Shown piece after piece: positions 3,506 to 44,679 of a stretch of DNA of 64,000 nucleotides; position 1 is the stretch's first letter; each line of letters opens with the position of its first letter. A model generated the notes under the pieces. That model worked only from the letters and a program-made list of their open reading frames with translations. It did not search any database and was not told the origin of the DNA. Position numbers and translations under genes: made by a program. The stretch is from the NCBI GenBank assembly GCA_963847445.1, contig CAWJZV010000030.1, positions 32,001 through 96,000 of the forward strand, in the 5' to 3' direction. Source of the DNA: an uncultured delta proteobacterium. GTDB lineage: Bacteria > Desulfobacterota > Binatia > UBA9968.

Positions 3506-4058
3506 ATGAAAAGACAACTCACGCTCACCGTCAACGGCGCAGGACCACGAAGTTGAAGTCGAAGCCAATCGCTTACTGCTGCAAGTGCTGCGCGACACTC
3601 TCGATCTCACCGGCACCAAAGAGGGTTGCAGCATCGGCGTGTGCGGCGCGTGCAGCGTCATCATCGACGGCCGCTTGGTCAGTTCTTGCCTGACCCTCGC
3701 CGCCGGCTGCGTAGGCAAGAAGATCGAAACGATTGAAGGTTTGGCCAAAGACGGCAAGCTCCATCCGCTCCAGCAGGCGTTTATCGAATACGGCGGTTTT
3801 CAGTGCGGTATCTGCACTCCGGGTCAGATCATGGCTGCCAAAGCCTTGCTCGACGAAAACGCCAAACCCAGCGAAGAAGAAGTCAAAGAATGGATGTCGG
3901 GCAACCTGTGCCGCTGCACGGGGTATTATAAAATTCTTGAATCGGTGATGGCGGTGGTGGATGGCAAGACCGATCCCGACTACGCGTTTCGCAAGCGCGA
4001 GACCACCGCGAAGATTCAGAGCTTGGACGTTTATAAACCGGTTGCGAAAACGAGCTGA
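3506..4058 (+). CDS. Mo-hydroxylase small (2x[2Fe-2S]) subunit, CoxS/CutS family, frameshift ~3545
   Basis: GTKEGCSIGVCGACSV, QCGICTPG, GNLCRCTGY. Confidence 0.95.
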
Positions 4059-4079
4059 TATCATCTCGAAGGGATAATG

Positions 4080-4160
4080 TCTCGCGCCAAGGCGCAACGG
4101 ACCCCAAGTTCGGAAAGGCAGCAATCAGTTTTCCTTTGCGCCCTTGCGCCTGCGGAGATA
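4080..4160. repeat. Intergenic palindromic element, CGCCAAG/CGCAAAG...CTTTGCG family
   Basis: Similar arms at 26326-26422, 48231-48346 and 57650-57820. Confidence 0.6.
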
Positions 4161-4189
4161 ATCCGAGAAAACAGCGAGCCGCATCAATC

Positions 4190-6542
4190 ATGTCTAAATC
4201 AGAAAACTTCTCCGTCGTCGGCAAGCGCGTGCAGCGCGTCGAGGGCTTCGACAAAGTCACCGGCGATTCAAAATTCATCGCCGACATTCATTTGCCCGGC
4301 ATGCTGACCGGCAGAATCCTGCGCAGCCCCTACCCCCACGCGCGCATCCGCGCCATCGACACCAGCAAGGCGGAGAAGCTGCGCGGCGTGCGCGCCGTGG
4401 TCACCGCCGAAGACACCCTCAAACGACCCTGGGGCGCGTTCTTCGCCGACCAATACATTCTATCCGTCGGCAAGACCCGCTATGTCGGCGAAGAGGTCGC
4501 GGCGGTGGCGGCCATCGATCCGGATATCGCCGAGGAGGCGCTGGATTTGATCGAGGTGGATTGGGAACCGTTGCCCGGAGTGTTCGACGCCGAGGAAGCG
4601 ATGCACGACGGCGCGCCACTGGTGCACGACGACAAGCCCAACAACATCGCCATGCATCTGGATCTCGAACGCGGCAACATCGCTCAAGCCTTCGCCGACT
4701 CGGACATTATCGTCGAGGACACCTTCACCAGCATGCCGCAGTGGCACTGCTCCATCGAAACCATCGGCAGCGTGGTCGAGTACTCGCCCAACGGCAAATA
4801 CACGATCTACATGAATACTCAGACTCTGTTTAACGCGCGCTATCGCATCGCCACGGCTCTCGGCGTGCCCGAGACCGACGTGCGGATCATTCAGAGCGCC
4901 GTCGGCGGCGGTTTCGGCGGCAAGTCGTGCGACGATAACAATGCGCTGGTCTGTGCCGTGCTCGCGCGCAAGGCCGGCAAACCGGTGCGCGTCATCAATA
5001 CGCGCGAAGAAGAGTTCCTCGCCGGCTGCCGGCCGCGCGTGTTCATGAAGATCAACGTCAAGTTGGGGTTCAAGAAAGACGGCCGCATCCGTGCCAAAGA
5101 ATTAAAAGTCATCGCCGACAACGGCGCCTACTCGGCCAAGGCGCCGGCGATCACCGGCGTCGCGGCGATGCGCCATGACACCTGTTACAAGTACTCCGAC
5201 GTCAAGCTCGAAGCCAAGCTGATCTACACCAACAAGATTCCCACCGGCGCCTTCCGCGGCTTCGGCAATCCGTCGGCGGAATGGGCGGTGGAGCAAGCCA
5301 TCGACTTGGGCGCCCACGCTCTCGGCATCGATCCATTGGAGATAGCCCGGATCAACGCCGCGGAAACCGGCTACGTCTCGCCCCATGGCAATCGCGTCAC
5401 CAGCTGCGAGCTCAAGCAATGTCTCGACATGGCTGAGCAGATGATCGACTGGAAAGCCAAGCGTGCCAACAAAGCGCCGAATACGGGCTTGGGCTTGGCC
5501 TGCACCGTGCACGTCAGCGGCAAGCGCCATTTCGGCGATTACGACGGTAGCTCGGCGACCATCAAGATCAACGAAGATGGCAAGGCGCTGATCCTGAGCG
5601 GCGAAGGCGAATGCGGCCAGGGCGTGCATACGGCGATGTGCCAGATCGCCGCCGAAGAGTTGGGCGTGGCGGTGGAAGACGTGGAAATCTCCCGCGCCGA
5701 CACCGATCTGACGACCTTTTGTCTGGGCGCTTTCGCCAGCCGCTTGACCTACGTCAGCGGCAACGCGGTCAAGAACGCCGCCACCAACGTCAAAGCACAG
5801 CTCTTCGAGCAAGCCGCCGAAATGTTGGAGGCCAACGCTGCCGATTTGATGTCGCGGGACGGCAGGATTTTCGTCAAAGGCGCCGAAGGCAAAGCGGTGA
5901 CCGTCGCCGATGTCGCTCGTGCGCGCTTATTCCGCCACAACGGCGCGCCGATTGTCGGTTCCGGCAGTTTCGACGCCGACTCGGTGTTGCCCAGATAGCA
6001 CGCGCTTCGGTAATGAATCGGGCGCTTACAATTACGGCGTGCAAGCGGCGCAAGTCCATGTCGACCCGCAAACCGGCCAGGTTAAAGTCTTGCAAATGGT
6101 CGTCGCCTCCGACTGCGGCACAGTGATCTATCCCATCGGCGCCGAAGGCCAGGTCGAGGGCGGTTTGGCCCAAGGCATCGGCTACGCCCTCACCGAAGGT
6201 TTGCAGATCGACGAAGGCCGGCCGCTCAATCCCAATTTTTCCGATTACCGCATCCCCTCCATGCGCGACATGCCGCCGTTACAGCATGCCTTCGCCGATT
6301 CCTACGAGCCAACGGGACCGTTCGGCGCCAAAGGACTGGGCGAACTCAACATGGACCCGACAGCCGCGGTTATCAACAACGCCATCTTCGACGCCGTCGG
6401 CGTGCGGGTGAAGACCCTGCCGATCACCCCGGAAAAAATCCTACGTGCGCTAAAGGAAAACAGAGCAACAAGTAAGCAGCACAAGAGCCATGATGAGAAA
6501 GACTTTTCACCACGATCACGAAGCACCATGCTTGAAGAATAA
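4190..6542 (+). CDS. Xanthine dehydrogenase family molybdopterin-binding large subunit, frameshift ~5995
   Basis: LRSPYPHARI, VGGGFGGK, TGAFRGFG, GPFGAKGLGE (catalytic Glu). Confidence 0.95.
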
Positions 6543-6595
6543 TCATCCGACCGTTGTGGTGCATAGCTATTTGCGCTGTCCGCGCGAGAACAAGC

Positions 6596-7456
6596 ATGAT
6601 TAGATTCGACTACCAGGAACCGACGACGCTGAAAAAAGTCTTCGCCTTGATGGAAAAACATGGCGACGATGGCCGCGTCATCGCCGGCGGGACATCGTTG
6701 ATCATCATGATGCGCCAGCGCTTGCTCACCCCCAAAGTGGTCATCAGTTTGGCGCGGCTGTCGAAGTTCGACAAGATCAGCTACGGCGCCAAAGACGGCC
6801 TGCGCATTGGCGCCGGTGCGCGCCATCGCGACATCGAGCTGTCGAAAGCCGTGCAGCAGCATTATCCCCTGCTCCACGAAACCTTTCGTAAAGTCGCCCA
6901 GCCGCGCATTCGCAACATGGGCACCGTCGGCGGCAACCTCGCCGCCGGCGATCCGCTGACCGATCCCGGCGCCAGCCTGATCGCTCTTGATGCCGAAGTG
7001 ACGCTCACCAGTAGTAAGGGCCACAGAACATTGCCGTTGGATGAGTTCTTCATCGACTACTATCAAACAACCATGGAACCCGGCGAATTGCTGACTGAAA
7101 TCCACGTCCCACCGCCGACCCGGCCCGGCTGGTCACATATCAAGTTCACGCCGCGCAGCGTCGAAGATTTCGCCACGGTGGGCGTGGCAATCACTCTGCG
7201 AACCAAGGATGGCATCTGCGAGGATGTGCGGCTCGGCCTCAATTCGGTTTCCTCGACGATAGTTCACGCTAAGAAAGCCGAAGCGATTTTGCGCGGCAAA
7301 GCCATCACGGACGAGCTACTGCGCGAAATGGGCGAAGTCGCCGCCAGCGAATGCGATCCCACCGACGACAACCGCGGCTCTGCCGAATACAAACGCGAGC
7401 TTGTGAAAGTCTTGGTCCCCCGCGCCGCGAACGAAGCAATTGCGCGCGCCGGTTGA
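6596..7456 (+). CDS. Mo-hydroxylase medium FAD-binding subunit (CoxM/CutM family)
   Basis: IAGGTSL, IRNMGTVGGNL, DDNRGSAEYK. Confidence 0.95.
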   Translation: MIRFDYQEPTTLKKVFALMEKHGDDGRVIAGGTSLIIMMRQRLLTPKVVISLARLSKFDKISYGAKDGLRIGAGARHRDIELSKAVQQHYPLLHETFRKVAQPRIRNMGTVGGNLAAGDPLTDPGASLIALDAEVTLTSSKGHRTLPLDEFFIDYYQTTMEPGELLTEIHVPPPTRPGWSHIKFTPRSVEDFATVGVAITLRTKDGICEDVRLGLNSVSSTIVHAKKAEAILRGKAITDELLREMGEVAASECDPTDDNRGSAEYKRELVKVLVPRAANEAIARAG

Positions 7457-10346: not shown

Positions 10347-10823
10347 ATGAAACAAACGCATCCGTGTCACTATCAATGGCCGGCTCTACGAAGAAGAGGT
10401 CGAGCCGCGCATTTTGCTCGCCCATTTTCTGCGCGAGACCATCGGACTGACCGGCACCCATGTCGGCTGCGTCATCGGCGAATGCGGCGCCTGCTCGGTG
10501 CTGCTCGACGGCAAAGTGGTCAAGTCTTGCCTGCACTTCGCGGTGCAGGCCGACGGGCGGGAGATCACGACCATCGAAGGCTTGGCCAAAGACGGCGAGC
10601 TCAATCCGGTGCAGGAAGCGTTCGTCAAGAATTACGCCTTTCAGTGCGGCTATTGCACGCCGGGCATGGTGATGACCAGCCACGCGCTGCTTGCAGAAAA
10701 ACCCCAATCCATCGGAAGAGGAGATCCGCAAAGCGCTGGCCGGCAATCTGTGCATGTGCACCGGCTATGTGCAGATCGTCGACGCGGTGAAAGACGCGGC
10801 AAAGGGAATGAAAAATGGCTAAG
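10347..10823 (+). CDS. Mo-hydroxylase small [2Fe-2S] subunit, frameshifted
   Basis: [32 protein letters not shown] (alternate frame). Confidence 0.9.
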
Positions 10824-13247
10824 TTCGTAGGCAACCGTTCACGCAGCAAAGAAGGGCCGCGCCATGTCACCGGCCGCGGTCTTTTCACCGATGATTTCAC
10901 AATTGCCCGGCATGCTCCAGGCGATGATTCTGCGCAGTCCGCACGCCCATGCGAAAATACTTTCCGTCGATGCCTCGGAAGCGCTCAACCAGCCCAACGT
11001 GTTTGCCGTGGTCACCCCCGACGATGTCAAAAAACTGACCAAGCCCTTCAAGCCCGGCCGCTATGCCGCCGGTTTGAAAAGACCAATTGACGAGTACGCC
11101 GGCGCCGTCGACAAGGTCCGCTATGTCGGCGAGCCCATCGGCGCGGTGGCGGCATGGGATCGCGGCACGGCGGAAGATGCTCTCGAATTGATCCAAGTCG
11201 ACTACGAGCCGCTGCGCCCCAACGTCGACGTGCACGAAGCGATCAAGCCGTCGTCGGCGGCTTTATTCGACGAGCTCGGCACCAATCTGGCCTGGACCGG
11301 TTCGCTGCAATACGGCGACATCGACGCTGCGTTCAAGTCCGCCGATCGCGTCGTCACCGAGAAATCTGAAAATTCATCGCTACAGCTCGACGCCGTTGGA
11401 ACCCTTCAACGTCATCGCCTCCTTTGACGCCGCGAGCAAACGCTTGACCGTGTGGGTGACGGCGCAGGTGCCGGAAGTGATTTACGACGGCCTGCGCGAA
11501 GCGCTTGGGGCTGCAAGACGTTCGCGTGATCATTCCCGATGTCGGCGGCGGCTTCGGCCAGAAGATTCATTTGATTCGCAAATACGTCGTGCTGGTGTCG
11601 CTCTTGGCGATGAAAACCGGCCGGCCGGTGAAATGGATCGAGGACCGCACCGAGCACATGATGGCCGGCGGCCATGCCTGCGCTCAGGAAGTCGAAGCCG
11701 AAGCGGCGGTGAAGAACGACGGCACGGTGCTCGGTCTCAAATTCAAAGAATATGATGACGTCGGCGGCTCGATCAGCACGCTGACGATTCACTTCACCAA
11801 CAAGCTCAACAATCTGTCGAACACCTACAAGACGCCGGCCATCTACATGGAAGGCAATGCGGTGGTGACCAACAAGTGCCCGGTCATTCCCAACCGCGGC
11901 ATCGGCAAGCCGGGCATGTGCTTCATCTGGGAACGGATGATGGACCGGGTGGCCCAGGCGCTGAACTTGAGCCCCATCGAAGTGCGCCGGAAAAATCTCA
12001 TCCAGGCCAACGAGATGCCCTACACGCACCATCAGCGGCAACGTCTACGACAGCGGCGATTACCCCGGCCTGCTGAAAACGCTTTTGGAGAAAATCGACT
12101 ACGACAAGCTGCGCGAAGAGCAGAAAACAAGCGCGCGAACAAGGCAAGCTGATCGGCATCGGCATCGTCATCGGCGTCGAGCCCGGCGGGCGCAATGCGG
12201 CGCGCGACATGGCGATCTTTCCCGAGATGAAAGAACCGCCCGGCTCCGGCGGCGTCAACGGCGCGAAAATTAAACTGGAGAAAAACGGCACGCTGTCGCT
12301 CCACTTGGGCTCGCCCAACTGCGGCCAGGCGCATGAGACGACGACGGCGCAGGTCGCCGCCGATATTCTCGGTTCGACGCCGGATAAGATTCAGCACCAG
12401 CATCCCCTTCGACAGCGATCTGTCGTCCTGGGGCGTGGCCGCGGCCAATAGCGGCAATAACTTTCACTTATACGATATCGGCGCGATCCACGGCGCAGCG
12501 ACCAAGCTGCGCGAGAAGATTCTCAAGCTCGCCGCTTTCAATCTCAAAGCCGAACCGTCCGAACTGATCATTGAAGACAGCGTCGTGAAAGTCCCCGGCG
12601 CGGCGGCGAAACAAATCACCTTCGCCGAGTTGGGCCGCATCGCCTACAACAACCAGCATCTGATCCCCGACGACATGGAACCGGGGCTAGAGGCGACCTT
12701 CTACTACATGTTTCCCCACGCCAAACCGAACATCGTGCCCGGCGCCGACCGCAAGGTGCGCGCGCAGTTTACCTTTTCCGCCGGCGCCCATGCGGCCATC
12801 GTCGAAGTCGACAAGAACACCGGCGCGGTGCATGTGCTGCGCTATTTGATCGTCGGCGACAACGGCACGGTGATCAATCCCGATGTCGTCAACGGCCAGG
12901 TTTACGGCTCGGCGGCCCACGGCATCGCCGTCGCCCTGGGCGAGGGTTTCATGTACAGCCCCGAGGGCCAGCCGCTGACGATCACCTATCTCGACTACGG
13001 CAAATGCTCGACGGCGGAGACGCCGCGCGTCGAAGTCATCCATCAGCCCTCGCCGTCGCCGTTCACCTCGCTGGGCCAGAAAGCCGCCGGCGAAGGCGCG
13101 GCGATCCCCTCGCCCGCCGCCATCGCCAGCGCCGTCGAGGATGCCTTGCAGCCCTACGGCGTGAAAGTTTGCGAGTTGCCGATCACACCCGAAGCGGTGT
13201 GGCGCTTGATCAATCACAATCCGGAAAAAGAGCGGAGGACTTTCTAG
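10815..13247 (+). CDS. Xanthine dehydrogenase/CoxL-like large subunit, several frameshifts
   Basis: [28 protein letters not shown] loop, [15 protein letters not shown]. Confidence 0.92.
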
Positions 13248-13249
13248 TC

Positions 13250-14110
13250 ATGATTCCCGGCTCTTTCGAATACTTTGCGCCCCGTTCTCTCGACCGATGC
13301 GGTAAAGTTCCTGGCGGATCATCGCGACGATGTAAAAATTCTCTCCGGCGGGCAGAGCTTGCTGCCGCTGATGAAGATGCGCTTGTCAAAGCCCGCCTAC
13401 ATCGTCGACATCGGCCGCATCCCCGGCTTGGATACGATCAGCGAAGACGGCAACAATCTCATCATCGGCGCGCTGGTCACCCACGAACAGATCGAATATT
13501 CCGACCTGCTCAAGGTTAAATGCCCGCTGCTGCCGCAAACCGCCACGACCATCGCCGACGTGCAGGTGCGCAACCGCGGCACCATCGGCGGCAGCATCGC
13601 CCACGCCGATCCGGCCGGCGATTGGCCGGCTGCGGTCATCGCCCTTGACGCCGAGATTCGCGTCTTCGGTCCCAGCGGCGAGCGTTGGGTCAAGTGTGAC
13701 GACTTCTTTCTCGGCTTGCTTGATGAGTGTGCTCGGAACCGGATGAGATCGTCACTGGAATCAAAGTGCCGGTGACCGGCAGCGACAAGACCGCCTATCA
13801 GAAAGCCGCGCCACGCTCTTCCGGCTTCGCCGTCACCGGCGTCGCCGTGCGTTTGGCGGTCGATGCCGCCGGCACATGCAGCCGCGCGGCCATCGGCATC
13901 ACCGGCGTCGGCGACAAGGCTTACCGCCCCGAGCGCACCGAGCAGATGTTAACCGGCAAGAAGCTCGACGCGAAATTGATCGAGGACGCGGCCGCCGAGT
14001 CGACGCGCAATATCGAAGTCATCGAAGACATCAACGGCTCGTCGGAATACCGCGCCCATCTGACTCATGTCTACGTCGTTCGCGCGATACAAGAAGCATT
14101 GAGCCGATAG
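13250..14110 (+). CDS. Mo-hydroxylase FAD-binding medium subunit, frameshifted
   Basis: LSGGQSLLPLMKMR, VRNRGTIGGSIAHADPAGD, EDINGSSEYRAHL. Confidence 0.93.
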
Positions 14111-14163: not shown

Positions 14164-15048
14164 TCACATAACCTGGCGGCGCAGGTAGGCGCTGATGTAA
14201 TCGACAATCGTCACCAAAATGTAAATCGCTATGATTAAGGTCAGCAACTGCTGCTCAAAAAATAAGCTGATGGCGATATGGATGCGCTGGCCTAAACCGC
14301 CGGCGCCAACCAGCCCCAACACCGCGGCCATGCGAATGTTAACTTCCCAGCGATAAAGCGTGTAGGAAATAAACTGCGGCAGCACCTGCGGCACGATGCC
14401 GTAGAATAATATTTGCAACCGATTCGCCCCGGTGGCTTGGAGCGCTTCGATGGGCTGGGAATCGACGTTTTCCAGCACTTCACCGAAGAGTTTGCCAAGC
14501 ACGCCGCCGGTGTGAACGCCGAGGGCGAGGACCCCCGGAAACGGCCCGAGGCCGACGAGAAATACAAAGATCAACGCCCACACCATCTCCGGCACCGTGC
14601 GCAGTATATTGAGCAGGCTCTTCGCCGCGAGATAGGGCACGATGCGCGCCTTGCGCCGCCAACCCTGTTTGGGCTCCATCTCATAGAGCAAACCGGAAAA
14701 TATTAAGTTGCGCGAAGCGAAAAATACCACTGACAGCGCGATGGCCACGGCCAGGAGCGTTCCCATGAAGGAAATCGCGAAGGTCTCAATGCTCCCCTTC
14801 ATCGCCTCGTGCAAGACGTTGGGCGAAAGATCCGGTGGCAGCAATTTTTTTATGTAGATGAGGATCTGTCCGAAGCTGTCGGCGCTGAAGAGCTGCGCCA
14901 GATCGATGCCCGCGCCGCGATAGCTCCAGATAAGAAAGGCGCCAAAGGCCAAACCGATGGCAGCGTTCTTCCATGTCGAGGGCGTGGCAGCACGGGCGCG
15001 GGTCGGCGGAATCGTCTCACAAGCGTTCGGCAGCGGCGACGGGCTCAT
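14164..15048 (-). CDS. PhnE/PtxC-family ABC permease (putative selenate/oxyanion transporter)
   Basis: LRTVPEMVWALIFV, GLGPFPGVLALGVHTGGVLGKLFGE, YRWEVNIR. Confidence 0.9.
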   Translation of the reverse strand: MSPSPLPNACETIPPTRARAATPSTWKNAAIGLAFGAFLIWSYRGAGIDLAQLFSADSFGQILIYIKKLLPPDLSPNVLHEAMKGSIETFAISFMGTLLAVAIALSVVFFASRNLIFSGLLYEMEPKQGWRRKARIVPYLAAKSLLNILRTVPEMVWALIFVFLVGLGPFPGVLALGVHTGGVLGKLFGEVLENVDSQPIEALQATGANRLQILFYGIVPQVLPQFISYTLYRWEVNIRMAAVLGLVGAGGLGQRIHIAISLFFEQQLLTLIIAIYILVTIVDYISAYLRRQVM

Positions 15049-15899
15049 AGCATGGCACGCACTTTCGCGCTCAAGTAATCCACTGCGGCAACCATCAGAA
15101 ACAACATGATCAAGATCGTCAGCACTTCATTGAAATTGAACATGCGCATGGAGATTTCGATCTGCTGGCCCAAGCCGCCGGCGCCGACCAAGCCTAAAAT
15201 TGCCGAGGCGCGCACAGCGCACTCCCAGCGATACAGCGTATAGGAAACGAAATTGGGCAGCGCCTGGGGAAACCAGCCATAGAAAAACACCTGCAGCTTA
15301 TTTGCCCCGGTGGCCTGCAACGCTTCCAGAGGCCGGGAATTCACCGACTCGAAGATCTCTGAATAGACTTTGCCGAGCATGCCGCCGTAGGCGACCCCGA
15401 TGGCGAGCACGCCGGGAAACGGCCCCAAGCCGACGGCGCGAACGAACATGAAGGCCCAGACGAATTCCGGTATTGAGCGGAATAGACTCAGCAAGCCGCG
15501 CGCGACCAGATAGATGCCCTGACGTAGACCCCGGCGTAGGGGCGCGCCTTGGAGCTCGGCATCGTTGAGGATGCCGCCGACGACCAGCGTATGGGTGCCC
15601 AACAGTCCGAGTGGAAAACCGATCAGAACCGCGATCGCCGTGCCCCAGATAGAGATTTGAATAGTCTCTAAAGCCGGACGCAGCATCAAGGATAGAAAAT
15701 TCCACGAGACCTCCGGCGGAAACATGCCGGTAAGAAATTTCCCCAACGACGCGCGCCCGCGGTTGGAAAAAAACAGCTCCGGCTCGATCCCCGCCCTTCT
15801 CCAACTGTCGACGAATACTATTACGAAGAGAGCCGCGAAAAGATAGGGAAAGTAGGCTTTAGCTGAGCGAAGGGTAAGCGATGGGCTCGATGGTTTCAC
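15045..15899 (-). CDS. PhnE/PtxC-family ABC permease (second copy)
   Basis: RSIPEFVWA, GMLGKVYSEIFE, YRWECAVRAS. Confidence 0.9.
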   Translation of the reverse strand: MKPSSPSLTLRSAKAYFPYLFAALFVIVFVDSWRRAGIEPELFFSNRGRASLGKFLTGMFPPEVSWNFLSLMLRPALETIQISIWGTAIAVLIGFPLGLLGTHTLVVGGILNDAELQGAPLRRGLRQGIYLVARGLLSLFRSIPEFVWAFMFVRAVGLGPFPGVLAIGVAYGGMLGKVYSEIFESVNSRPLEALQATGANKLQVFFYGWFPQALPNFVSYTLYRWECAVRASAILGLVGAGGLGQQIEISMRMFNFNEVLTILIMLFLMVAAVDYLSAKVRAML

Positions 15900-16683
15900 G
15901 CGCGGTCTCGGTCACGGCAGGGTCGCGAAAATTGCCGGAGTACAAATCCTCTAACATATCCTCGCCGATCTTGTCAGGGGACAGATCGAAAGTTACCCGG
16001 CCCTGCTTGATGCCAACGACGCGAGGGAAATAGGCGAGCGCGAGGTCGACACTGTGCAGGCTGACCAGCAAAGTCTTGCGCGTGTTTTGGCTGATATCGA
16101 CCAACAGCCGAACAATCGACGAAGCCAGGGTGGGGTCGACGGATGAAACCGGCTCATCGGCAAGAATAACTTCAGGGTCCTGCACCAAGACACGGGCGAT
16201 CGCGACTCGCTGCTGTTGGCCGCCGGAGAGCTCATCGGTACGCTCAAAAATCTTCTCGGGGATTTCCACTTGGCTGAGCGCGCTGTGGACAAGTTCGACA
16301 TCGGCTGGCTTGCACAAAGACAAGAGCGACCGCAGCGTCGGCCAGCGGCCCAATTGGCCGGCTAGGACGTTATGAATCACGCGCAGGCGCGGCACTAGAT
16401 TATGCTGTTGGTAAACGCTGCCGATGCGGCGCCGCACATGGCGTAAACGCTGGCCATGCAATAAGTCAATATCTTCGCCGTCAATATAAAGTTTTCCCGA
16501 AGTCGGCCGGAGCGTGCAGTTGAGCAGACGAAACAGCGTGGTCTTGCCGGCGCCGCTGGGACCGATCAGGGCGACTTTCTCGCCCTGATCGATCTTTAGA
16601 TCGATGCCGTCGAGCGCCACCTGAAGGCGGCCAAACTCCTTGCGTACGGATTCGAGTTGATATTGCCGGGCCGGGGTGTTCAC
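15859..16683 (-). CDS. PhnC-family ABC ATP-binding protein
   Basis: [37 protein letters not shown]. Confidence 0.93.
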   Translation of the reverse strand: MNTPARQYQLESVRKEFGRLQVALDGIDLKIDQGEKVALIGPSGAGKTTLFRLLNCTLRPTSGKLYIDGEDIDLLHGQRLRHVRRRIGSVYQQHNLVPRLRVIHNVLAGQLGRWPTLRSLLSLCKPADVELVHSALSQVEIPEKIFERTDELSGGQQQRVAIARVLVQDPEVILADEPVSSVDPTLASSIVRLLVDISQNTRKTLLVSLHSVDLALAYFPRVVGIKQGRVTFDLSPDKIGEDMLEDLYSGNFRDPAVTETARETIEPIAYPSLS

Positions 16684-16688
16684 GCGAT

Positions 16689-17546
16689 TTACTTGAACAG
16701 GCCAGCCGCCACCGCCGCCTCTTCGATGCCCTTCCAGTCCGCATCCTTGGCGACGATGTAGCCCTTGGTGCGGTGCAGGTCGAGAAGCTTTTTGTCGTCG
16801 GGTTTGTTGTAGTCGAGTTTGAGAAACGCTTTGGTGATTTTTTCGACCGTAGCCTTGTCGACACCGGCGCGCACGGTCCAGACGTAATCGACATAAGGCG
16901 GCGTGGTCCAGAAAATATTCACCTTGCTGGTATCGACCTTTTTGGTTTCGACGAGCTTATCCCAAACCAAGAAATTCAACGCGCCGGCATCCACCTGGCC
17001 GGATTCGACCCAAGCGGCAGTCGCATCGTGGGCACCGCTAAAGCTGAACTTGGAAAAATCTTTTTCCGGGTTGACGCCGCCTTTGATCAAGAAGTAGCGC
17101 GGCATCAGATGCCCGGAAGTGGAACTGACGCTGCCGAATGCAAAGGTTTTGCCCTTTAAATCTTTCAGACCTTTGATGCCCGTGTCCTTTCGGGTGATAA
17201 AGTGGCTCTTAAACTCGGCGTCCTCTTTGCGCATGATGACACGGTGCGCGCCTTTGGCCTGCTTGGCAGCTTGCACAGACGTCAAGCCGCCGTACCAAAC
17301 CATTTCCAGGCGATTGGCGGCGAGACCTTCAACCGTCGCGGCGTAATCGACCACGGGAGTGAATTTGACTGGAATGCCGATCTCCTTGGTCAAATAATCG
17401 GCAAACGGCGCATAGATGCGCAGCATCTCCTGCGGGTTTTCATCGGGAATCGCCGATATTCGTAATTCCTTCAACCCCTGGGCTTGCGTGCTAGCCCAAC
17501 CCAAAGAGATTGCCAGAGCCGCCGCAAAAAATACTACTCGCTTCAT
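16689..17546 (-). CDS. PhnD-family substrate-binding protein, resembling the putative selenate ABC transporter SBP subfamily
   Basis: Signal peptide, LRISAIPDENP, WYGGLTSVQA, STSGHLMPRYFL, FSGAHDAT, TPPYVDYVW; RBS AAGGGGGAG. Confidence 0.8.
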   Translation of the reverse strand: MKRVVFFAAALAISLGWASTQAQGLKELRISAIPDENPQEMLRIYAPFADYLTKEIGIPVKFTPVVDYAATVEGLAANRLEMVWYGGLTSVQAAKQAKGAHRVIMRKEDAEFKSHFITRKDTGIKGLKDLKGKTFAFGSVSSTSGHLMPRYFLIKGGVNPEKDFSKFSFSGAHDATAAWVESGQVDAGALNFLVWDKLVETKKVDTSKVNIFWTTPPYVDYVWTVRAGVDKATVEKITKAFLKLDYNKPDDKKLLDLHRTKGYIVAKDADWKGIEEAAVAAGLFK

Positions 17547-17594
17547 GATCTCCCCCTTATAAATATCGCTCACAATCGTGACCCATGTTAGATA

Positions 17595-17631
17595 ACAGAG
17601 ACAGCCTATAAGTCAAATCGATTTTATCTAT
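17595..17631. promoter_or_regulatory. Two LysR-type boxes (ACAG-N7-CTAT 17595-17609; ATCG-N7-CTAT 17617-17631) overlapping a TTGACT -35-like hexamer
   Basis: One-mismatch matches to the ATAG-N7-CTAT seen at 20771 and 22310; 22-bp spacing. Confidence 0.6.
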
Positions 17632-17713
17632 CGGTGCCGAGCGAACAAAGGCAGCGGCTACGCTCCCGTGCAATAGCCGGTTGCCCAGGACGTGCAAGCC
17701 GTCCGGCGGCGCG

Positions 17714-18185
17714 CTAACTTTGCGCTTTCAGAAAATCCATCACGGCTTCAGGATGCTCCTCGGCCTTTTTAACAGTCGTCCAGTGCTTGATCACGTCGCC
17801 TTTGGGATCGATCACGACCGTGGAACGGATCGTGCCCTGCACCTCTTTGCCGTACATCATCTTCTTGCCGAAGGCGCCGTATTTTTTCATCACCTCGGTC
17901 TTGGGATCTGAAAGCAATATGAAGGGCAATTTATAACTTCTCGACGAACTTGTTGTGGGACTCGATGCTATCCTTACTGACACCGAGAACGACCGTTCCG
18001 GATTTCTTCAATGCAGCATTCAAATCGCGAAATCCGCAGGCTTCTTTGGTGCAACCGGGCGTGTTGTCCTTTGGATAAAAATAAATCACCACGGTTTTGC
18101 CTTTGTAGTCGTCCAGTGAATGCGTCTTGCCATCGTTGCCTTCCAGGCTAAATGCCGGCGCTTTCTTGCCTTCTAAACTTGCCAT
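17714..18185 (-). CDS. bcp: Peroxiredoxin BCP/PrxQ, Cys form (frameshift ~17935)
   Basis: [37 protein letters not shown]. Confidence 0.93.
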
Positions 18186-18252
18186 CGGTTTATTCCTCCT
18201 AGACTTGTCGAACGGATATTCAAAACGCTGATGAATTATTTAGCACCGCCGG

Positions 18253-19053
18253 TCAAACTAACGAAACCCGCTCGGCCTTGTGCGCCATCGCGCGTATCGG
18301 ATCGTAGTCGTGATCATCGGCGGCGGTAAAACGCAACCATCGGCCATCCGCGAGGACCTTGCGGCCAGCGGGATCGAGATGCATCTCGACGAGCAACTGG
18401 CGCAGCGCCTGCCGTTGGGATGCCGCAACCTGGCGCGAGATCACCCAGGGCGGAATCGGACTCGGCCCGATGGTGTCGATCACGCGAATTTCATCCGCTA
18501 GATCATTTCGCTGGCCGCCGAGCCACTCCAACACGGTGCTGTCGATGGCCGCGCCGTCGACGGCTCCCGATAAGATCATTTGCAACGACTTGGTATGGGC
18601 GCCGGCTTCCACCGCCGCGGCAAAAAAATTATCGATTTCACCGAGATCGAAGAGATGCGCGCGCACGACGTTGAAACCGGAATGGGAACGCGGCTCGTTG
18701 TAAGCCCAGGTCGCGCCACGGAGGTCACGGAAAGATCGGCAAGCGCTGTCCCGCCGCACCACCACATCGGAGAAATACACCGGTCTGGATCCGTAGCGCT
18801 CTCCCACCGGTATCGGCACGGCGAGCAACTCCATACTGCTCTCGGCAAGGTCGGCCTTGTGGACGTAGGGTAATCCACAGAGCCAAAGCACTTGAATCTC
18901 GCCGCGATCGAAGAGCGCTTCACGCTCCTGCCAGGGCATGCCGGTCACATACTCCGTCGGGACATTGAGCTTCCCTTGCAGATACCCGGCGATAGCTCGA
19001 CAGAAATCTTCGGTGTTCTCCGCCATGCAGGAAGCGAGCTTTAAAGGATTCAT
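18253..19053 (-). CDS. PhnD/SsuA-fold substrate-binding-like protein without signal peptide
   Basis: WLCGLPY, RPVYFSDVVVR, AYNEPRSHSG, DGAAIDS, GPSPIPPWV; N-terminus not hydrophobic. Confidence 0.8.
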   Translation of the reverse strand: MNPLKLASCMAENTEDFCRAIAGYLQGKLNVPTEYVTGMPWQEREALFDRGEIQVLWLCGLPYVHKADLAESSMELLAVPIPVGERYGSRPVYFSDVVVRRDSACRSFRDLRGATWAYNEPRSHSGFNVVRAHLFDLGEIDNFFAAAVEAGAHTKSLQMILSGAVDGAAIDSTVLEWLGGQRNDLADEIRVIDTIGPSPIPPWVISRQVAASQRQALRQLLVEMHLDPAGRKVLADGRWLRFTAADDHDYDPIRAMAHKAERVSLV

Positions 19054-19066
19054 CGAGGCGGAACTG

Positions 19067-19348
19067 CTACTCGCTGACCGTCACGCCACGCCAAAAGGCA
19101 ACGTAGTTTTTAATCGAGCCCGCCGCCTCTTTGGGTTCTGGATAAAACCAAGCGGCATCTTGGTTGACCTGGTCGCCCACCTTGACGTGATAGTAACTGG
19201 CCAGCCCTTTCCAGGGACAAGTGCTGTGGGTGTCGCTCGGCGCGAAGCAATCTTTCTTGATCGATTCCGGCGGAAAGTAATGGTTGCCTTCGACGACGAT
19301 GGTTTCGTTTGATTCGGCGACAACCGTATTCTTCCAAACTGCTTTCAT
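19067..19348 (-). CDS. DUF427 domain protein
   Basis: VVEGNHYFPPES, STCPWKGLASYY, AAWFYPEPK, YVAFW. Confidence 0.9.
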   Translation of the reverse strand: MKAVWKNTVVAESNETIVVEGNHYFPPESIKKDCFAPSDTHSTCPWKGLASYYHVKVGDQVNQDAAWFYPEPKEAAGSIKNYVAFWRGVTVSE

Positions 19349-19374
19349 GATCAATCCTTTCGATTTACTACGGG

Positions 19375-20736
19375 TCAGTCAGTGACGCAGCGAAACTTGG
19401 CGAACACATAGGGATAGTGCGCTTGATACCAATTGCGAAAACTTGGCCGCAGCAGTGCCGCATCGGTGGCCCAGGACGCGCCTTTGACGACAAAATGTTT
19501 GCCGTCGAAAAAATCCTTGGAATAGTCGGGATAGGTCGTCATGTAGGGCGTGAACCCCGGCAGCGGTGCAAACGGTGTATCGGTCAGCTCCCAACCATTG
19601 CCGACCAGCTCTTGAACTCCCCAGCGGCTAGCACCCGCGGGATGTGAACCGACCGGCTGCGGCGACCATGCGCCAAAGTTGAAGTTGCCATGGCGGGCCG
19701 CAGGCTCGGCATCGCCCCAAGGATACGCCGACTCCCGTTCGTCTGGACCGTAGTAGGCGGCGCGCTGATATTCGGCCTCGGTCGGCAAGCGCTTGCCGCG
19801 CCACGCGGCATAGGCACGCGCTTCAGCCAGACTTACGTAGACCGGCCAACTGGCAACTTGCTCCAGCGGAAATTGGTCGAACATCGCACGGTATGACCAG
19901 GTGTCATCCTGTTTGAACCAACCGGTCGGATGTTGTTTCTTCTCAAGTTCTTTCCAGTGCCAATCATCCTCGCGCCAGTAGCGGCGCGCCGCGTAGCCAC
20001 CGGAAAGAACAAACTCGAGATATTCGCCATTGGTAACCGGCAAAGAGTCCATCGCGAAGCCTGCGACATCAACCGTGATCTCGGAGAACTCATTGTCCCA
20101 GCCAAAAGTGATATCTTCTAATCGCGCCCCCAACCGGGCTCTGCCTGGGGGAATGCGAATACTCTCCGCTCTTGCGGCGCGCCCGAATGCGTAACGGGCA
20201 AGACTCGCGCGGCCGAACTTTATCGCCGGGCGCCATCTGCTGCATCATGTAGAGCAAGGTCTCTTGATGCATGTATTCATGCTCCAAGATCAGCTCAAAG
20301 ACGCGCCCGCCTTGGGCCAACAGATCGGTAGAACGGCAATAGCCGAGCGCATCAGTCGACTCTAAGAGAGAGCGCCGGACTTTGTCACGATACTCGAGGG
20401 TCTCACCAAGGCTGGGCCATTGATCCGGTACTTCCGGGTGCCAGTGGCATTCGCCGGTGTCGACGTCGGGATCGATGCCGCGGCAGAACAGATCGTCAAA
20501 ATAAGCATTGAACAGACGGCCAGTGCAGAATGCCGCCGCAAACCTGGTTCCAGGAAAACGCCGGCAAATGACCGATATAAAAAATAAACGGATGACGCCA
20601 AACGATCGGCTTGGTCAAACGTTTGGCCGGTGCCAACGATGGCGAAAATCTTGTCTGAACGCGCCCAGGCATCGACCAACCTGTCACGCAACTGCTCGGC
20701 AGCGCTCGGACCGCGGCTCTTTAACGGCAGTGCCAT
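19375..20736 (-). CDS. EgtB/OvoA/SenA-superfamily non-heme iron sulfoxide (or selenoxide) synthase-like protein: DinB_2 + FGE-sulfatase domains, frameshifted
   Basis: RHPFIFYIGHLPAF, EHEYMHQETLLYM (His triad), FGWDNE, RLPTEAEY, LVGNGWE, RPSFRNWYQAHYPY; RBS GGAGG. Confidence 0.88.
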
Positions 20737-20748
20737 AACTCGGTACCT

Positions 20749-20785
20749 CCATTAATTAGCTATATACTAAATAGGAATTAGCTAT
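20749..20785. promoter_or_regulatory. LysR-type operator: perfect ATAG-N7-CTAT (20771-20785) plus a half-site 22 bp closer to the gene
   Basis: ATAGGAATTAGCTAT; direct repeat AATTAGCTAT at 20754-20763 and 20776-20785, immediately upstream of the egtB-like start. Confidence 0.7.
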
Positions 20786-20829
20786 GTAAGACCGCGGAGG
20801 TAAAATTTCGATGAAAAAAATGCCGCAGA

Positions 20830-21742
20830 TTATCGGTGTTTGAGAAAATCGCGGAAAGCTTGGGCGATGGGATGGAACGGCCGGCGGCTATGAAAGACTT
20901 GGTAGAAGTTGCGTTCGAGTTTCAGGCCACGGATCGGCACTTCGACGATGCTGCCTTGATCGAGCTCATGGCGAATCGAGATGCGCGATAAAATCGAAAA
21001 GCCGTAACCGGCCATCAGGGCTCCCTTGACGGCTTCCGTGCTGCCAAGCTCCATGGTGATGTTCAAAAGGTCGTGGGCGGGCGGTTTGCGTTTGACCGAG
21101 CAATTGCCGGATGGAATCCAACGTCCCCGAGCCATGTTCGCGTGAAATGAATCGTTCACTGCGCAGGTCCGCGACTTCGATCGCTTTACAGCGGCTCCAT
21201 GGATGGCCTTTGGGCACGGCGACGACCATTTCGTCATCCCAAATCTTTTCGAAACTAAGTCTAGGATCGTCGCCTTTGAAGCCGACGAAGCCGATCTCGA
21301 CCTTGCCATCCAAGAGATCGGCGACCACACCGGCGGAATCGCCAATGCGCAGGATCGGTTTTACCTGGGGAAACTTTTTGATGAACTCGCCGAGCTTTTG
21401 CGGCAGGAGATATTCGCCGGGAATGCTGCTGCCGCCGACCCAAAGCTCGCCGCTGAGAGTGCCGTGAAATTGCTCCACCGCGGCGACGGTTTCGCGTTTG
21501 AAGGCGAGTAGATTCTTCGCCCGTTCGGCGAGCATGAGGCCCAACGGCGTCAGACTGATCTTGCCCGGCATGCGGTAGAGCAGTTTGCCACCCACCGCTT
21601 CTTCGAGCTCTTGGACATGAGCGCTGATGGTGGGCTGGCGCAGCGAGAGCAGCTCGGCAGCCTGAGAAAAACTCTTATGTTCAGCGACCCAGTAGAAAAT
21701 TTCTAATTTGTGGAGATCGAGGTCGGCTTTGATTTTCGCCAT
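20830..21742 (-). CDS. LysR-family regulator (resembles the selenium-metabolism-associated, HrsM-like subfamily), frameshift ~21090
   Basis: HTH SFSQAAELLSLRQPTISAHVQELE; GGSSIPGEYLLP, REHGSGT, ELGSTEAVK. Confidence 0.9.
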
Positions 21743-21762
21743 GGAACAGGAAAAGCTTTGTC

Positions 21763-21808
21763 GCTGAGGGAGCGCGCCATTACAAACAATCGGCCGCGCT
21801 CCCTCAGC
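21763..21808 (-). terminator. GC-rich hairpin between the Sec-peroxiredoxin and LysR genes (terminator or processing stem)
   Basis: GCTGAGGGAGCGCG(CC)...GGCCGCGCTCCCTCAGC stem; weak U tract. Confidence 0.5.
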
Positions 21809-21822
21809 TAGGGTTTGACTAC

Positions 21823-22290
21823 TTACTTACCGAGGAATTCCAACACTTCCGCCGGATGGGCGCCGGCGTCAGTGACAGGAATCCAATGCTTCTTAATCGT
21901 GCCATCGGGGCCGATCAATGCGGTCGAGCGGATCGTCCCTTCCGAGACTTCGCCCGCGGCATTTTTGCGCGGTCCCCAGGCGCCATAGGCTTTCATGGTT
22001 TCTTTCTGCTGGTCGGCTAAGAGCACGAACGGCAGGTTGAACTTGTTGATGAACTGATTGTGAGAGTCGATGCCATCCGGGCTGACACCTACAACCACGG
22101 TATTGGCTTTCGTCACGGTATCGATAGCGTCGCGGAACCCGCACGCTTCTTTGGTTCAGCCAGGTGTGTCGTCTTTCGGATAAAACCACAGAATGACGTT
22201 TTTGCCGGCGTATTCCGCCAGCGAATGTTGCTTGCCGTCGCTCCCCGCCAAAGTGAACGCCGGCGCTTTTTGCCCTTCAAGTCCTGCCAT
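21823..22290 (-). CDS. bcp: Selenocysteine-containing peroxiredoxin (BCP/PrxQ), 155 aa, Sec at codon 45
   Basis: GGAGG + ATG 22290; MAGLEGQKAPAFTL...WFYPKDDTPG-TGA(22158-22156)-TKEACGFRD continues in frame into ORF 21823..22116; TGA aligns to the peroxidatic Cys of the paralog. Confidence 0.9.
22127..22146 (-). promoter_or_regulatory. Candidate bacterial SECIS hairpin
   Basis: GCGU-GCGG-GUU-CCGC-G-ACGC begins 9 nt after UGA; the G-containing apical loop lies 17 nt downstream of UGA. Confidence 0.65.
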
Positions 22291-22309
22291 GAAGCACCTC
22301 CGTATTAAG

Positions 22310-22324
22310 ATAGTGTTTGTCTAT
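22310..22324. promoter_or_regulatory. Perfect ATAG-N7-CTAT LysR-type operator upstream of Sec-peroxiredoxin/LysR
   Basis: ATAGTGTTTGTCTAT, 20 bp upstream of ATG 22290. Confidence 0.7.
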
Positions 22325-22370
22325 CACACCGATAATCTATCTATCAATGATCGAGGACCGGCCATTGGCA

Positions 22371-22399
22371 TTGTCAACGGCAATGCTTGACGGTATATT
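22371..22399 (+). promoter_or_regulatory. Sigma70-like promoter for ygfZ-like gene
   Basis: TTGTCA-N17-TATATT. Confidence 0.45.
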
Positions 22400-22408: not shown

Positions 22409-23578
22409 ATGGCAAAGCGATCGACCCTATCGGATTTGCACGAACGCCAAGGGGCGACTTTTATCGAACGGGACGGCTGGCTATTGCCCGACCATTTCGG
22501 CGATCCGGCGAGCGAGTACAATTCGGTTCGTGAATCCGCCGGCCTGTTCGACCTCGCCAATCGCGCCATGCTGCAATTCACCGGCGAGGACCGGCTATCC
22601 TATCTGCAAGGCATGCTATCCAATGATCTGCGCCCGCTTAAAATGTTCGATGGCCAGCAGGCGACGATTCTGACGCAGCAGGGCAAGGTGGTCGCCGATG
22701 TTCGCGTACTCTGCTCCTTGAACTCTTTTTACCTGGATTTCTGGGAGCCGCTCAAGGAAAAGATTCTCACCCATCTCAATCGCTATCTGGTCGCCGATGA
22801 CGTAGAGATCCATGATCCCAATGAGCAATGGAAAATGCTTTCGCTGCAAGGGCCGCGGGCGCAAGTGATGCTTGATCAAGTGTTTGCCAATGCCGAGCTG
22901 CCGGCGCACGCGAATCACCATGGCATGGTGCAATTCGACGGCACTCCGGTCTGCGTCGTGCGCGCCGATCGCACGGGCCATGACGGCTTCGATCTGATCG
23001 TGCAAACTTCTCAGCTCCTAACCTTTGCCCAACGCCTGACCGAGCTCGGCGCGGCCTGGGTCGGCGCACAGGCGCAGAATATCTTGCGCGTCGAAGCCGG
23101 TATGCCTCGTTACGGCGTCGATTTCTCCGAAGATAATCTGCTTCTTGAAGTTGCCCTGGATGACGCCGTGAGTTTCACCAAGGGCTGTTATTTGGGCCAG
23201 GAAGTCGTCGAGCGCATCCGCTCGCGCGGCCATGTCAACAAGAAGCTATGCGGGCTCTTGCTCGATGGCGACACCCCGGCAAGCCCTGGCGACAGGATCA
23301 GCGCCAGCGGCAAAGAGGTTGGCCAGATTACCAGCTCCGTCGCCTCCCTCGCCCTCCAGCGGCCTATTGCCTTGGGCTATGTCAACAAGGACTGCTGGAC
23401 GCCGGGCACCAAGTTGGCGGTAAGCCATGGCGGCAGTGAATTCGCGCGCGACGATAACCTGCAAGACCGATCGTCCCCGCTGCACACCCTGGCCCTTGAA
23501 TCCATGTCTCAACTCCGTATATTAGGCGGAAATTTGCTCCAGCTCAGAAAGGAACTTCGGCAATGGCCAATTTCGTAA
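22409..23578 (+). CDS. ygfZ: YgfZ/GcvT-family folate-binding aminomethyltransferase-like protein (true stop probably earlier; C-terminal frameshift)
   Basis: KGCYLGQE motif, LRVEAGMPRYG, GLFDL. Confidence 0.85.
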   Translation: MAKRSTLSDLHERQGATFIERDGWLLPDHFGDPASEYNSVRESAGLFDLANRAMLQFTGEDRLSYLQGMLSNDLRPLKMFDGQQATILTQQGKVVADVRVLCSLNSFYLDFWEPLKEKILTHLNRYLVADDVEIHDPNEQWKMLSLQGPRAQVMLDQVFANAELPAHANHHGMVQFDGTPVCVVRADRTGHDGFDLIVQTSQLLTFAQRLTELGAAWVGAQAQNILRVEAGMPRYGVDFSEDNLLLEVALDDAVSFTKGCYLGQEVVERIRSRGHVNKKLCGLLLDGDTPASPGDRISASGKEVGQITSSVASLALQRPIALGYVNKDCWTPGTKLAVSHGGSEFARDDNLQDRSSPLHTLALESMSQLRILGGNLLQLRKELRQWPIS

Positions 23579-23871
23579 AAGTCTGCAAAACCGATGAGGT
23601 CAAAGGCGGTTGCGGCAAAAGCTTAGAGATCGACGGCAAAGCCATCGGCGTGTTCAATGTCGACGGCAAGTTCTACGCGATCAACGATGTCTGCGGCCAC
23701 CGCGGCGGCCCGCTCGCCGAAGGCGAGATGGATGGCACCACCGTGATCTGTCCCTGGCATGGCTGGCGCTACAACGTCACCACCGGCGAAAACGAATTGT
23801 TGCCGGCTCTGCCCACGGAAAAGTATGAAGTCCAGGTCGAAGGCGACGACGTACTGGTCGATTTAGGTTAG
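23563..23871 (+). CDS. Rieske [2Fe-2S] ferredoxin
   Basis: CGHRGGPL...CPWHGWRY. Confidence 0.93.
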   Translation: MANFVKVCKTDEVKGGCGKSLEIDGKAIGVFNVDGKFYAINDVCGHRGGPLAEGEMDGTTVICPWHGWRYNVTTGENELLPALPTEKYEVQVEGDDVLVDLG

Positions 23872-38843: not shown

Positions 38844-39040
38844 AGCACAACCTCCAACAGTGAATAATTAAGTGATTCTACGCTTTTTTAAGCGCAGCGA
38901 TACCTAATACTACAATCTTTTCTTGAGTCAAGAATACCCGGCATTAACCCGTTGTCGATGCGGCAAAACCCTGCGGGCCGACCCGGGTTGGTCGCCCGCA
39001 GGCAGATTCGCGATCAATTTTGCCGCGACACGGACCAGCT

Positions 39041-44588: not shown

Positions 44589-44679
44589 TTTGCTTATAGC
44601 CCTCGCAGTTGAAATCCCTCGCCAGCCTGGGATAAGTGAAGCGAAGAACTTCACACAAAAAAGCTAGGAGGCACAAACG

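Follow-up and report, generated by a model that had tools for sequence, protein, structure and literature searches.

Which signal holds together ten co-oriented genes encoding, among others, two peroxiredoxins, a LysR regulator, a sulfoxide synthase and an ATP-binding cassette (ABC) importer in an uncultured delta proteobacterium, and is this signal selenium? The locus lies in a 64-kb stretch of DNA (G000:C30:32001-96000), referred to as the window, of an assembly of 7.19 Mb in 48 contigs with a completeness of 91.8% and a contamination of 6.9%. Window coordinates are used throughout; L numbers denote loci and G numbers genomes, with G000 being the source genome. The ten genes occupy positions 14164-22290 of the minus strand in three units, and Pfam and NCBIfam scans of the window proteins confirmed both this arrangement and the gene identities of the original prediction, which had been made from the DNA letters. 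As an answer, we propose that the genes may constitute an antioxidant and selenium-economy regulon tuned by selenium status, governed by a single selenium-associated LysR regulator (LysR_Se) via a shared operator in the manner of archaeal HrsM. Resting on this analogy, the proposal is, in our estimate, about evenly balanced between being right and being wrong. The features of the locus are listed below, with Sec denoting selenocysteine, Cys cysteine and SBP substrate-binding protein.

23563-23871, plus strand: small Rieske [2Fe-2S] protein, second gene of a divergent pair (Pfam Rieske, 75.8 bits)
22409-23578, plus strand: GcvT/YgfZ-like folate-binding protein, divergent from the Sec-PrxQ gene (Pfam GCV_T and GCV_T_C)
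22310-22335, minus strand: Operator 1, palindrome GATAG-N7-CTATC with a third half-site, located 20 nt ahead of the Sec-PrxQ start
21823-22290, minus strand: predicted Sec-PrxQ/BCP (bcp1), PF00578 at 125.9 bits, in-frame TGA at 22156-22158
20830-21742, minus strand: LysR regulator, NF040786 at 191.3 and 57.5 bits in two frames
20760-20785, minus strand: Operator 2, exact ATAG-N7-CTAT-N7-ATAG, between lysR and the synthase gene
19375-20736, minus strand: predicted EgtB-IV-type non-haem-iron sulfoxide synthase, FGE-sulfatase/EgtB-type, with insertions at about 20621, 20513 and 20199
19067-19354, minus strand: DUF427 protein, PF04248 at 113.6 bits (gathering threshold 22.1)
18253-19053, minus strand: AioX-like PhnD-fold protein without signal peptide
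17714-18185, minus strand: Cys-PrxQ/BCP (bcp2), TGC at the peroxidatic codon, frameshift at about 17934
17606-17631, minus strand: Operator 3, ATAG-N7-CGAT-N7-ATAG (one mismatch), upstream of the SBP gene
16689-17573 (probable ATG at 17546), minus strand: SBP, TIGR04553 at 334.9 bits (cut-off 250)
15859-16683, minus strand: PhnC-like ATPase
15045-15899, minus strand: PhnE-like permease
14164-15048, minus strand: PhnE-like permease

Selenium-Associated LysR Regulator

The intact ortholog L026 of the cluster LysR reached 267.8 bits on NF040786 ('selenium metabolism-associated LysR', cut-off 250), which bears out the selenium association proposed for this gene, and the LysR proteins of G015, G006 and G048 scored 260-268 bits. 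In all four genomes with an intact copy (G014, G015, G006 and G048), the cluster LysR was the only member exceeding the cut-off. SelD and SelA were present in G000 and in G047-G051, which fits the confinement of LysR_Se to Sec-decoding organisms, although these genomes are kin and, hence, no independent cases.

In published work, LysR_Se counts as an ortholog of archaeal HrsM and is predicted to be a selenium regulator (PMC5322559, PMC9312934). In Methanococcus maripaludis, HrsM is reported to repress Cys isogenes at adequate selenium, and depletion induces putative transporters (PMC11097638). The present locus shares with the Methanococcus HrsM regulon a regulator of the LysR_Se family, the occurrence of Sec and Cys isoforms in one organism and putative transporters linked to selenium status (PMC11097638, PMC5322559). 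The targets differ, being hydrogenases in the archaeal system, whereas the bacterial regulator stands with peroxiredoxins and a thio-histidine enzyme. Unlike in the HrsM system, the operator is here known by sequence alone and the Sec/Cys assignment varies between species. No paper joining sen or egt terms with LysR was found in the literature searched.

Shared Operator

Two forms of the box were considered, ATAG-N7-CTAT with two half-sites and the extended ATAG-N7-CTAT-N7-ATAG with three. The exact short form was found twice in the 64-kb window (at 20771 and 22310), with 0.21 occurrences expected and 5 of 100 shuffled sequences reaching two; both boxes are located just upstream of the first two units, those of bcp1 and of the synthase gene. 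Genome-wide (7.19 Mb), there are 20 such boxes. The box had been predicted to precede each of the three units, which is exact for these two, the third unit carrying a site with one mismatch (CGAT). When up to one mismatch was allowed, the three-half-site pattern gave six hits in the source genome, three of which are the promoters of the three units. The half-sites display the T-N11-A spacing, which is the usual type of LysR site. In Operator 3, the sequence TTGACT between half-sites 2 and 3 resembles a -35 box.

Operator 2 was exact in all ten loci with a placeable gene start, with invariant half-sites and varying N7 spacers. Exact matches in the genomes of five relatives numbered six and were confined to the cluster, where five precede the synthase gene and the remaining one precedes the SBP gene. 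With up to one mismatch, the pattern was present upstream of the SBP gene in three of six loci, and the full palindrome upstream of bcp1 in four of 12; it was further seen in the Binatia loci L059, L063 and L099. We conclude that this appears to be a new, sequence-defined candidate operator for a bacterial LysR_Se. Operator control of the sen/egtD or selABD genes was also considered and was rejected, with no site found at either.

Conservation of the Cluster

The cluster is widely conserved in soil Binatia-like bacteria. An ortholog of the synthase (at least 71% identity) was detected in 16 of 24 congeners, where this tally, like the SenA and SenB tallies below, counts genome G005 as one row. 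The synteny check came out in favour of the prediction: the order bcp1-LysR-synthase-DUF427-(PhnD-fold)-bcp2 was retained in 11 of 11 genus loci fetched, and it recurred in Binatia and metagenome loci. Among 80 reference-genome loci of the synthase family, nine showed the order, all of them titled as Binatia or 'delta proteobacterium'. A query of metagenome contigs with the AioX-like protein returned 221 relatives, and 78 of the best 80 loci had the cluster neighbours in the same order. The DUF427 gene was present in each of the 11 genus loci (the L035 copy has an internal stop) and the PhnD-fold gene in five, being missing from the other six with the rest of the cluster retained; the TIGR04553 importer followed immediately downstream in three.

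The YgfZ-like/Rieske pair was found beside the cluster in every genus, Binatia and metagenome locus with enough upstream flank, and the conserved unit thus extends past 14164-22290 to include it. An ortholog of the YgfZ-like gene passes TIGR03317 (YgfZ domain) with 77.3 bits (cut-off 49). This divergent pair, like the frameshifts treated below, was not part of the original prediction. Each part of the cluster belongs to a known or predicted family, and the claim of an undescribed regulon is to be narrowed correspondingly: LysR_Se and the putative selenate SBP had been published or curated as families before, and what appears new is the cluster as a unit, including the divergent pair, together with its operator. 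Neither the cluster and operator nor the cytoplasmic AioX-like family was described in the literature searched, which comprised articles without their supplementary files.

Peroxiredoxins and Selenocysteine Machinery

The bcp1 product carries the motif FYPKDDTPG-U-TKEAC, with UGA at the peroxidatic position and the resolving Cys five residues on. In the alignment, the TGA stands opposite the Cys of bcp2. The window and the 11 related loci, 12 in all, have TGA at this codon without exception, and the frame remains open beyond it. In all of these, a hairpin resembling a selenocysteine insertion sequence (SECIS) begins 9-11 nt past the UGA; in the window, it reads GCGUGCGG-GUU-CCGCGACGC (22123-22149, minus strand). 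The mean minimum free energy of the 33 nt after the codon was -12.8 kcal/mol in 22 bcp genes with TGA versus -7.0 kcal/mol in 14 with Cys, a comparison between distinct but related bcp sequences and, hence, no independent test. Judged by these features, bcp1 is a Sec-Bcp/PrxQ selenoprotein with predicted Sec insertion and a new member of a known family. It has the T-P-G-U motif, the AhpC/TSA fold and the SECIS-like hairpin in common with the Sec-Bcp/Prx family (COG1225, TxxU) and shows no essential difference from it, its pairing with a paralog that alternates between Cys and Sec being the particular feature here. Sec-containing Bcp with the TxxU motif is listed as a selenoprotein family in PMC9312934.

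The co-occurrence with Sec machinery was as anticipated, with selA-selB-selD and tRNA-Sec being present in the source genome. The selD gene itself has an in-frame TGA, implying a Sec-containing SelD, in the source genome (G000:C14:194887-195726) and in all five Binatia-type genomes checked (G047-G051).

Across the 12 loci including the window, bcp2 encoded Cys in eight and Sec (TGA) in four. The role of a selenium-independent backup, which had been assigned to the Cys copy, does not hold in view of the latter four.

Sulfoxide Synthase and Its Relation to the Egt and Sen Pathways

Comparison of the synthase with solved structures gave 213 bits for EgtB-IV (8vih), 182 for EgtB-I, 150 for OvoA, 109 for OvsA, 84 for SenA and 69 for EgtB-II. 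Residues R47, Y53, H56, D88, H152, H156, N434 and W435 are matched by identical residues of 8vih in the alignment. EgtB-IV enzymes are described as having the composite motif RxYH--DxHxHYxNWFx, in which the N-W pair marks hercynine-accepting enzymes (bioRxiv 10.1101/2024.04.10.588772); of this motif, the eight residues named were placed in the cluster synthase, which has Y instead of F after N-W. EgtB-IV is, thus, the best solved relative, with aligned iron ligands and hercynine-type N-W residues and with egtD-linked relatives outside the cluster. The synthase differs from it in the missing adjacent egtD, the Y for F exchange, a CHxHPE insertion and a score below the EgtB cut-off.

Of the 80 reference-genome loci introduced above, nine represent this cluster, 68 have an EgtD homolog within the locus and three have neither. 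In a tree of 84 rows from a quick search, with rows below 400 residues left out, the cluster enzymes formed one clade of 13 rows (SH-like approximate likelihood ratio test, SH-aLRT, 98), which is sister (97) to five egtD-adjacent rows and sits on a short branch. No clade-specific change was found at conserved or active-site positions of the cluster synthases. The insertion CH(W/D/V/S)HP(E/D) after GIDPD (residues 96-101 of the ortholog L025:6607-7965) is invariant in the cluster clade and shared only with the egtD-linked sister clade from Methylomirabilota, Rokubacteria and Verrucomicrobia. It was, therefore, rejected as a clade-specific mark of a new substrate.

The source genome contains a non-adjacent egtD (298.4 bits, cut-off 290.9). 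Among 31 genus genomes, 30 had an EgtD match, 24 had SenB above the cut-off and 23 had SenA above the cut-off. In G014, senB (339.3 bits, cut-off 300) and senA (489.7 bits, cut-off 420) are followed by egtD (304 bits, cut-off 290.9), and the 40% paralog of the synthase beside egtD is SenA. The senA gene of the source genome is cut by the start of contig C23 (G000:C23:18-1018); senB was not found in that genome and, given the truncated senA, is probably unassembled. Of the five Binatia-type genomes with the cluster, four had SenB and all five had SelD and SelA. At the G014 locus L137 (G014:C29:292000-306000), senB and senA are accompanied by a GlcNAcase-like gene, a hydrolase gene and a gene for a short FGE-like protein ahead of egtD.

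Profile scans of the window revealed no SenB or SelD homolog at the cluster locus. The predicted absence of the canonical partners is, thus, correct for SenB and SelD at the locus itself and does not extend to the genomes of the genus, most of which encode SenB and EgtD elsewhere, as the source genome does SelD. Production of selenoneine as well as ergothioneine is reported for bacteria that have sen clusters, and a putative selenate transporter lies near some of these clusters (bioRxiv 10.1101/2022.04.13.486033). The present cluster resembles them in that transporter, in the hercynine precursor and in its occurrence in the same genomes; unlike them, it has neither SenB nor SenC, and the true senA-senB pair lies on another contig. 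Since the organisms already carry the senA-senB route, which shares hercynine, the synthase is most likely of the EgtB-IV type and predicted to serve the sulfur (ergothioneine) branch, rather than being a new C-Se enzyme. The assignment as an orphan SenA-like C-Se enzyme was, therefore, not upheld, as the closest relative is EgtB-IV and the enzyme is nested in egtD-linked EgtBs.

AioX-Like Protein and DUF427

The nearest solved relatives of the AioX-like protein are the arsenite/arsenate sensors AioX and ArrX, with 79 and 78 bits, respectively. The AioX pocket is composed of Y88, C106, Y131, S161, S163, H192 and D210 (PMC5908839), for which the AioX-like protein has W41, C59, Y93, S123, S125, H153 and D171; six of the seven are identical, including the arsenite-binding Cys106. 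These seven positions and, additionally, C9 and C18 were invariant in 11 of 11 orthologs. Only 17 residues, three of them acidic (E12, E15 and D16), precede the PhnD-fold domain. This short acidic N-terminus lacks a signal peptide and implies a cytoplasmic location.

AioX and ArrX, which share the PhnD fold and the pocket including the ligand-binding Cys, are periplasmic; the AioX-like protein is predicted to be cytoplasmic, has two extra invariant N-terminal Cys residues and is encoded without AioS/AioR at the locus, where scans detected no sensor-kinase gene. Such a cytoplasmic form, with a total of three invariant cysteines, appears to be new. Its three thiols would suit either Se(IV) or As(III) as the captured species, and only the context speaks for selenium. 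The protein is tied to this cluster (78 of the best 80 metagenome loci), and its occurrence in other selenium contexts was rejected on the same count.

For DUF427, a structural model with a predicted local distance difference test (pLDDT) score of 96.6 matched 3djm with Z 16.2 (root-mean-square deviation 1.1 over 93 residues), the Mis18 yippee domain with Z 10.2 and MsrB1 with Z 6.2. A specifically MsrB-like character was rejected, because MsrB1 ranks below yippee and cereblon domains, and the shared fold is no evidence of function. DUF427 is assigned the beta-tent fold (PMC4287342). The alignment revealed one invariant Cys, and an ESM Atlas search with DUF427 yielded only further DUF427 clusters.

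The order EgtB-EgtD-DUF427 was found in eight Acidobacteriota loci (L082, L094, L101, L108, L111, L117, L120 and L129), which is a second, independent link of DUF427 to the synthase family. In the literature searched, the only connection of DUF427 with ergothioneine was the co-occurrence table of PMC13674229, where, in the article without its supplements, synthases are tabulated without comment as co-encoding DUF427 in 5.7% and a putative selenate SBP in 3.1%. A role of DUF427 in handling the sulfoxide product is a lead, not a finding.

ABC Importer

The SBP passes TIGR04553 ('putative selenate ABC transporter substrate-binding protein') and has a hydrophobic N-terminus, as judged by eye. Together with the PhnC/PhnE-type ATPase and permeases, this matches the make-up of TIGR04553 transporters. 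The substrate of that family is a predicted one, and the feature setting the present importer apart is that it shares its operator with antioxidant genes. The importer adjoins the cluster in some genomes only. In G014, a 365-amino-acid open reading frame matching no NCBIfam family replaces it, and molybdenum hydroxylase genes follow directly after the cluster.

Proposed Mechanism and Competing Explanations

That the regulator binds DNA, what its effector is, in which direction it controls the genes, which substrates are used and what DUF427 and the AioX-like protein do is inferred, and we propose the following course of events. LysR_Se would bind the ATAG-N7-CTAT(-N7-ATAG) operators ahead of the units, with a signal of selenium status, by analogy with HrsM, being the most likely input. 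The importer would take up a selenium oxyanion, to be captured in the cytoplasm by the three-cysteine AioX-like protein. The synthase would join hercynine, supplied by the unlinked egtD beside senA-senB of the selenoneine branch, with cysteine to form the ergothioneine precursor. Through LysR_Se, the cell may shift between selenium devices (Sec-PrxQ, selenoneine) and sulfur devices (Cys-PrxQ, ergothioneine). As one locus unites the sequence-defined operator and three promoters with candidates for an importer and for a cytoplasmic binding protein, bacterial selenium sensing would become open to simple binding and reporter assays. That an ergothioneine-type enzyme and the selenoneine pathway coexist in these organisms and are controlled differently poses the question by what means a cell selects its sulfur or its selenium antioxidants, and DUF427 and the cytoplasmic AioX-like protein gain a concrete biochemical context.

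Several observations weigh against a selenium-tuned regulon. On the side of the operator, the Sec gene bcp1 is also preceded by an operator-like site, whose conservation across all 12 loci is limited to the half-site TGATA(G/A)A. In the genomes of the relatives, the pattern with up to one mismatch was not enriched (29 hits versus 45 for the reversed control), and neither the sen/egtD locus of G014 nor selA-selB-selD of the source genome showed an operator. Regarding the peroxiredoxins, metagenome copies of bcp1 had TGA in 11 of 15 cases and those of bcp2 had Cys in 52 and Sec in 13 of 65; in Binatia loci, either PrxQ copy may be Cys or Sec, with bcp1 being Cys in several. A strict pairing of a Sec gene with a Cys backup, therefore, fails, as bcp2 is Sec in some loci and bcp1 is Cys in others. 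The importer, whose substrate is predicted, exceeded the cut-off in only six of 31 genus genomes. Of the family models, those for the selenate SBP and LysR_Se were passed as expected from the original prediction, and those for the synthase were not, with the full-length ortholog reaching 224.5 bits on EgtB (TIGR03440, cut-off 360), 258.8 on OvoA_Nterm (TIGR04344, cut-off 400) and 220.3 on SenA (NF041186, cut-off 420). In addition, the LysR, synthase and bcp2 genes are each split over frames by single-base frameshifts in the source assembly.

A plain oxidative-stress regulon, in which a metabolite arising from oxidants would be the LysR signal for switching on peroxiredoxins, ergothioneine synthesis and Fe-S repair, and in which selenium would enter only via the use of Sec in the peroxiredoxins, is a serious possibility, albeit, in our judgement, a rather unlikely one. 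The two PrxQ proteins, the EgtB-IV-type enzyme, the YgfZ-like Fe-S helper and the Rieske protein fit it equally well, which is a further point against selenium tuning. Most cluster-bearing genomes are without the importer, and L059 retains cluster and operator with both PrxQ copies being Cys. Against this, the regulator passes the LysR_Se model and has no second such protein beside it in any genome checked. Wherever the presumed selenium importer occurs, it has the operator in common with the other units, and the cluster-bearing genomes checked were all Sec users. Moreover, the LysR ortholog scored 95.4 bits on the OxyR model (cut-off 329), and no conserved cysteine column was found among 18 cluster LysRs. 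This makes an OxyR-type thiol switch unlikely and a small-molecule effector the more likely alternative.

An extended version of the selenium reading, a 'chalcogen switch', would have LysR_Se toggle between Sec- and Cys-PrxQ and between selenoneine and ergothioneine, with the importer, the AioX-like protein as selenium carrier and DUF427 processing the sulfoxide product. We regard it as doubtful; if true, the AioX-like protein would be the first cytoplasmic selenium carrier of its kind.

Formation of a selenium metabolite without SenB, be it selenoneine or a new seleno-histidine, by the synthase, DUF427 and the AioX-like protein from selenocysteine or protein-bound selenium, which sharpens the idea of the original prediction, is improbable. 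It could draw on the selenium-linked context (LysR_Se, the TIGR04553 importer and an AioX-like thiol protein possibly carrying Se(IV)) and on the finding of no C-S lyase gene in the cluster scans; selenoxides eliminate spontaneously, and fungal Egt1 reportedly accepts selenocysteine. The genus, however, already possesses the canonical senA-senB, the SenA score of the synthase is about half the cut-off, and the enzyme nests on its short branch among egtD-linked EgtB-IV-like enzymes without a clade-specific active-site change. DUF427 also lies beside plain EgtB-EgtD pairs in the eight Acidobacteriota loci.

A metalloid (arsenite/antimonite) response, with the AioX-like protein binding As(III) and the cluster guarding against metalloid-induced oxidative stress, would agree with AioX and ArrX as nearest solved relatives and with the conserved arsenic-binding Cys, but is very unlikely, as ars and aio genes did not turn up in the locus scans, six of 11 genus loci lack the AioX-like gene and retain the rest of the cluster, and the regulator family is selenium-associated. 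That the genes are mere neighbours without common regulation, the motif being a promoter element or a chance occurrence, would accord with the reversed control and the poorly conserved bcp1 site, but is highly improbable in light of six of six exact matches in relatives and three of six hits in the source genome falling on the cluster, the invariant half-sites with varying spacers in ten of ten loci and the gene order kept across distant lineages and in the best metagenome loci.

Frameshifts in the Source Assembly

With G003, the closest relative at 89% DNA identity, as reference, one-base insertions are present in the window at about 21094-21097, 20621, 20513, 20199 and 17934, and the synthase gene of G003 and others are intact. 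In contigs from public short-read runs of close relatives, the extra base was missing at 21094, 20621, 20513 and 20199, the positions covered by this comparison; position 17934 lay outside the coverage. At least four unrelated window genes are split likewise (4037-6539, 10831-13244, 37819-38867 and 44668-45512), and selB of the source genome is in four pieces. The split genes across the window point to a general indel error rate of the assembly. An unbroken rpoB on another contig indicates that indel errors are not everywhere and weighs against this view. Based on the same splits in unrelated genes, the short-read contigs without the extra bases and the intact relative, we conclude that the frameshifts are probably assembly errors and not gene decay, and their interpretation as a sign of selenium-system decay was rejected on these grounds. 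The split or fused unrelated genes, to which 61474-62436 also belongs, encode molybdenum hydroxylase subunits, an SBP and a short-chain dehydrogenase.

Further Sequence Features of the Region

A strong GC-rich hairpin (21764-21807, minus strand) is located directly 3' of the bcp1 stop codon. All ten parsable loci have it, with stems of differing sequence, and it probably acts as terminator or attenuator ahead of lysR. A scan for consensus promoters and terminators gave no more sites than were found in shuffled sequence.

Two CoxL/CoxM/CoxS-like molybdenum hydroxylase gene sets are present in the window at 4037-7453 and 10351-14110, the second being convergent to the importer. The best sigma-70-like match of the region, TTGTCA-17-TATATT (10 of 12 positions; 22371-22399), faces the divergent YgfZ-like gene, and its -35 box coincides with the conserved TTGACAATGC element upstream of bcp1 in relatives.

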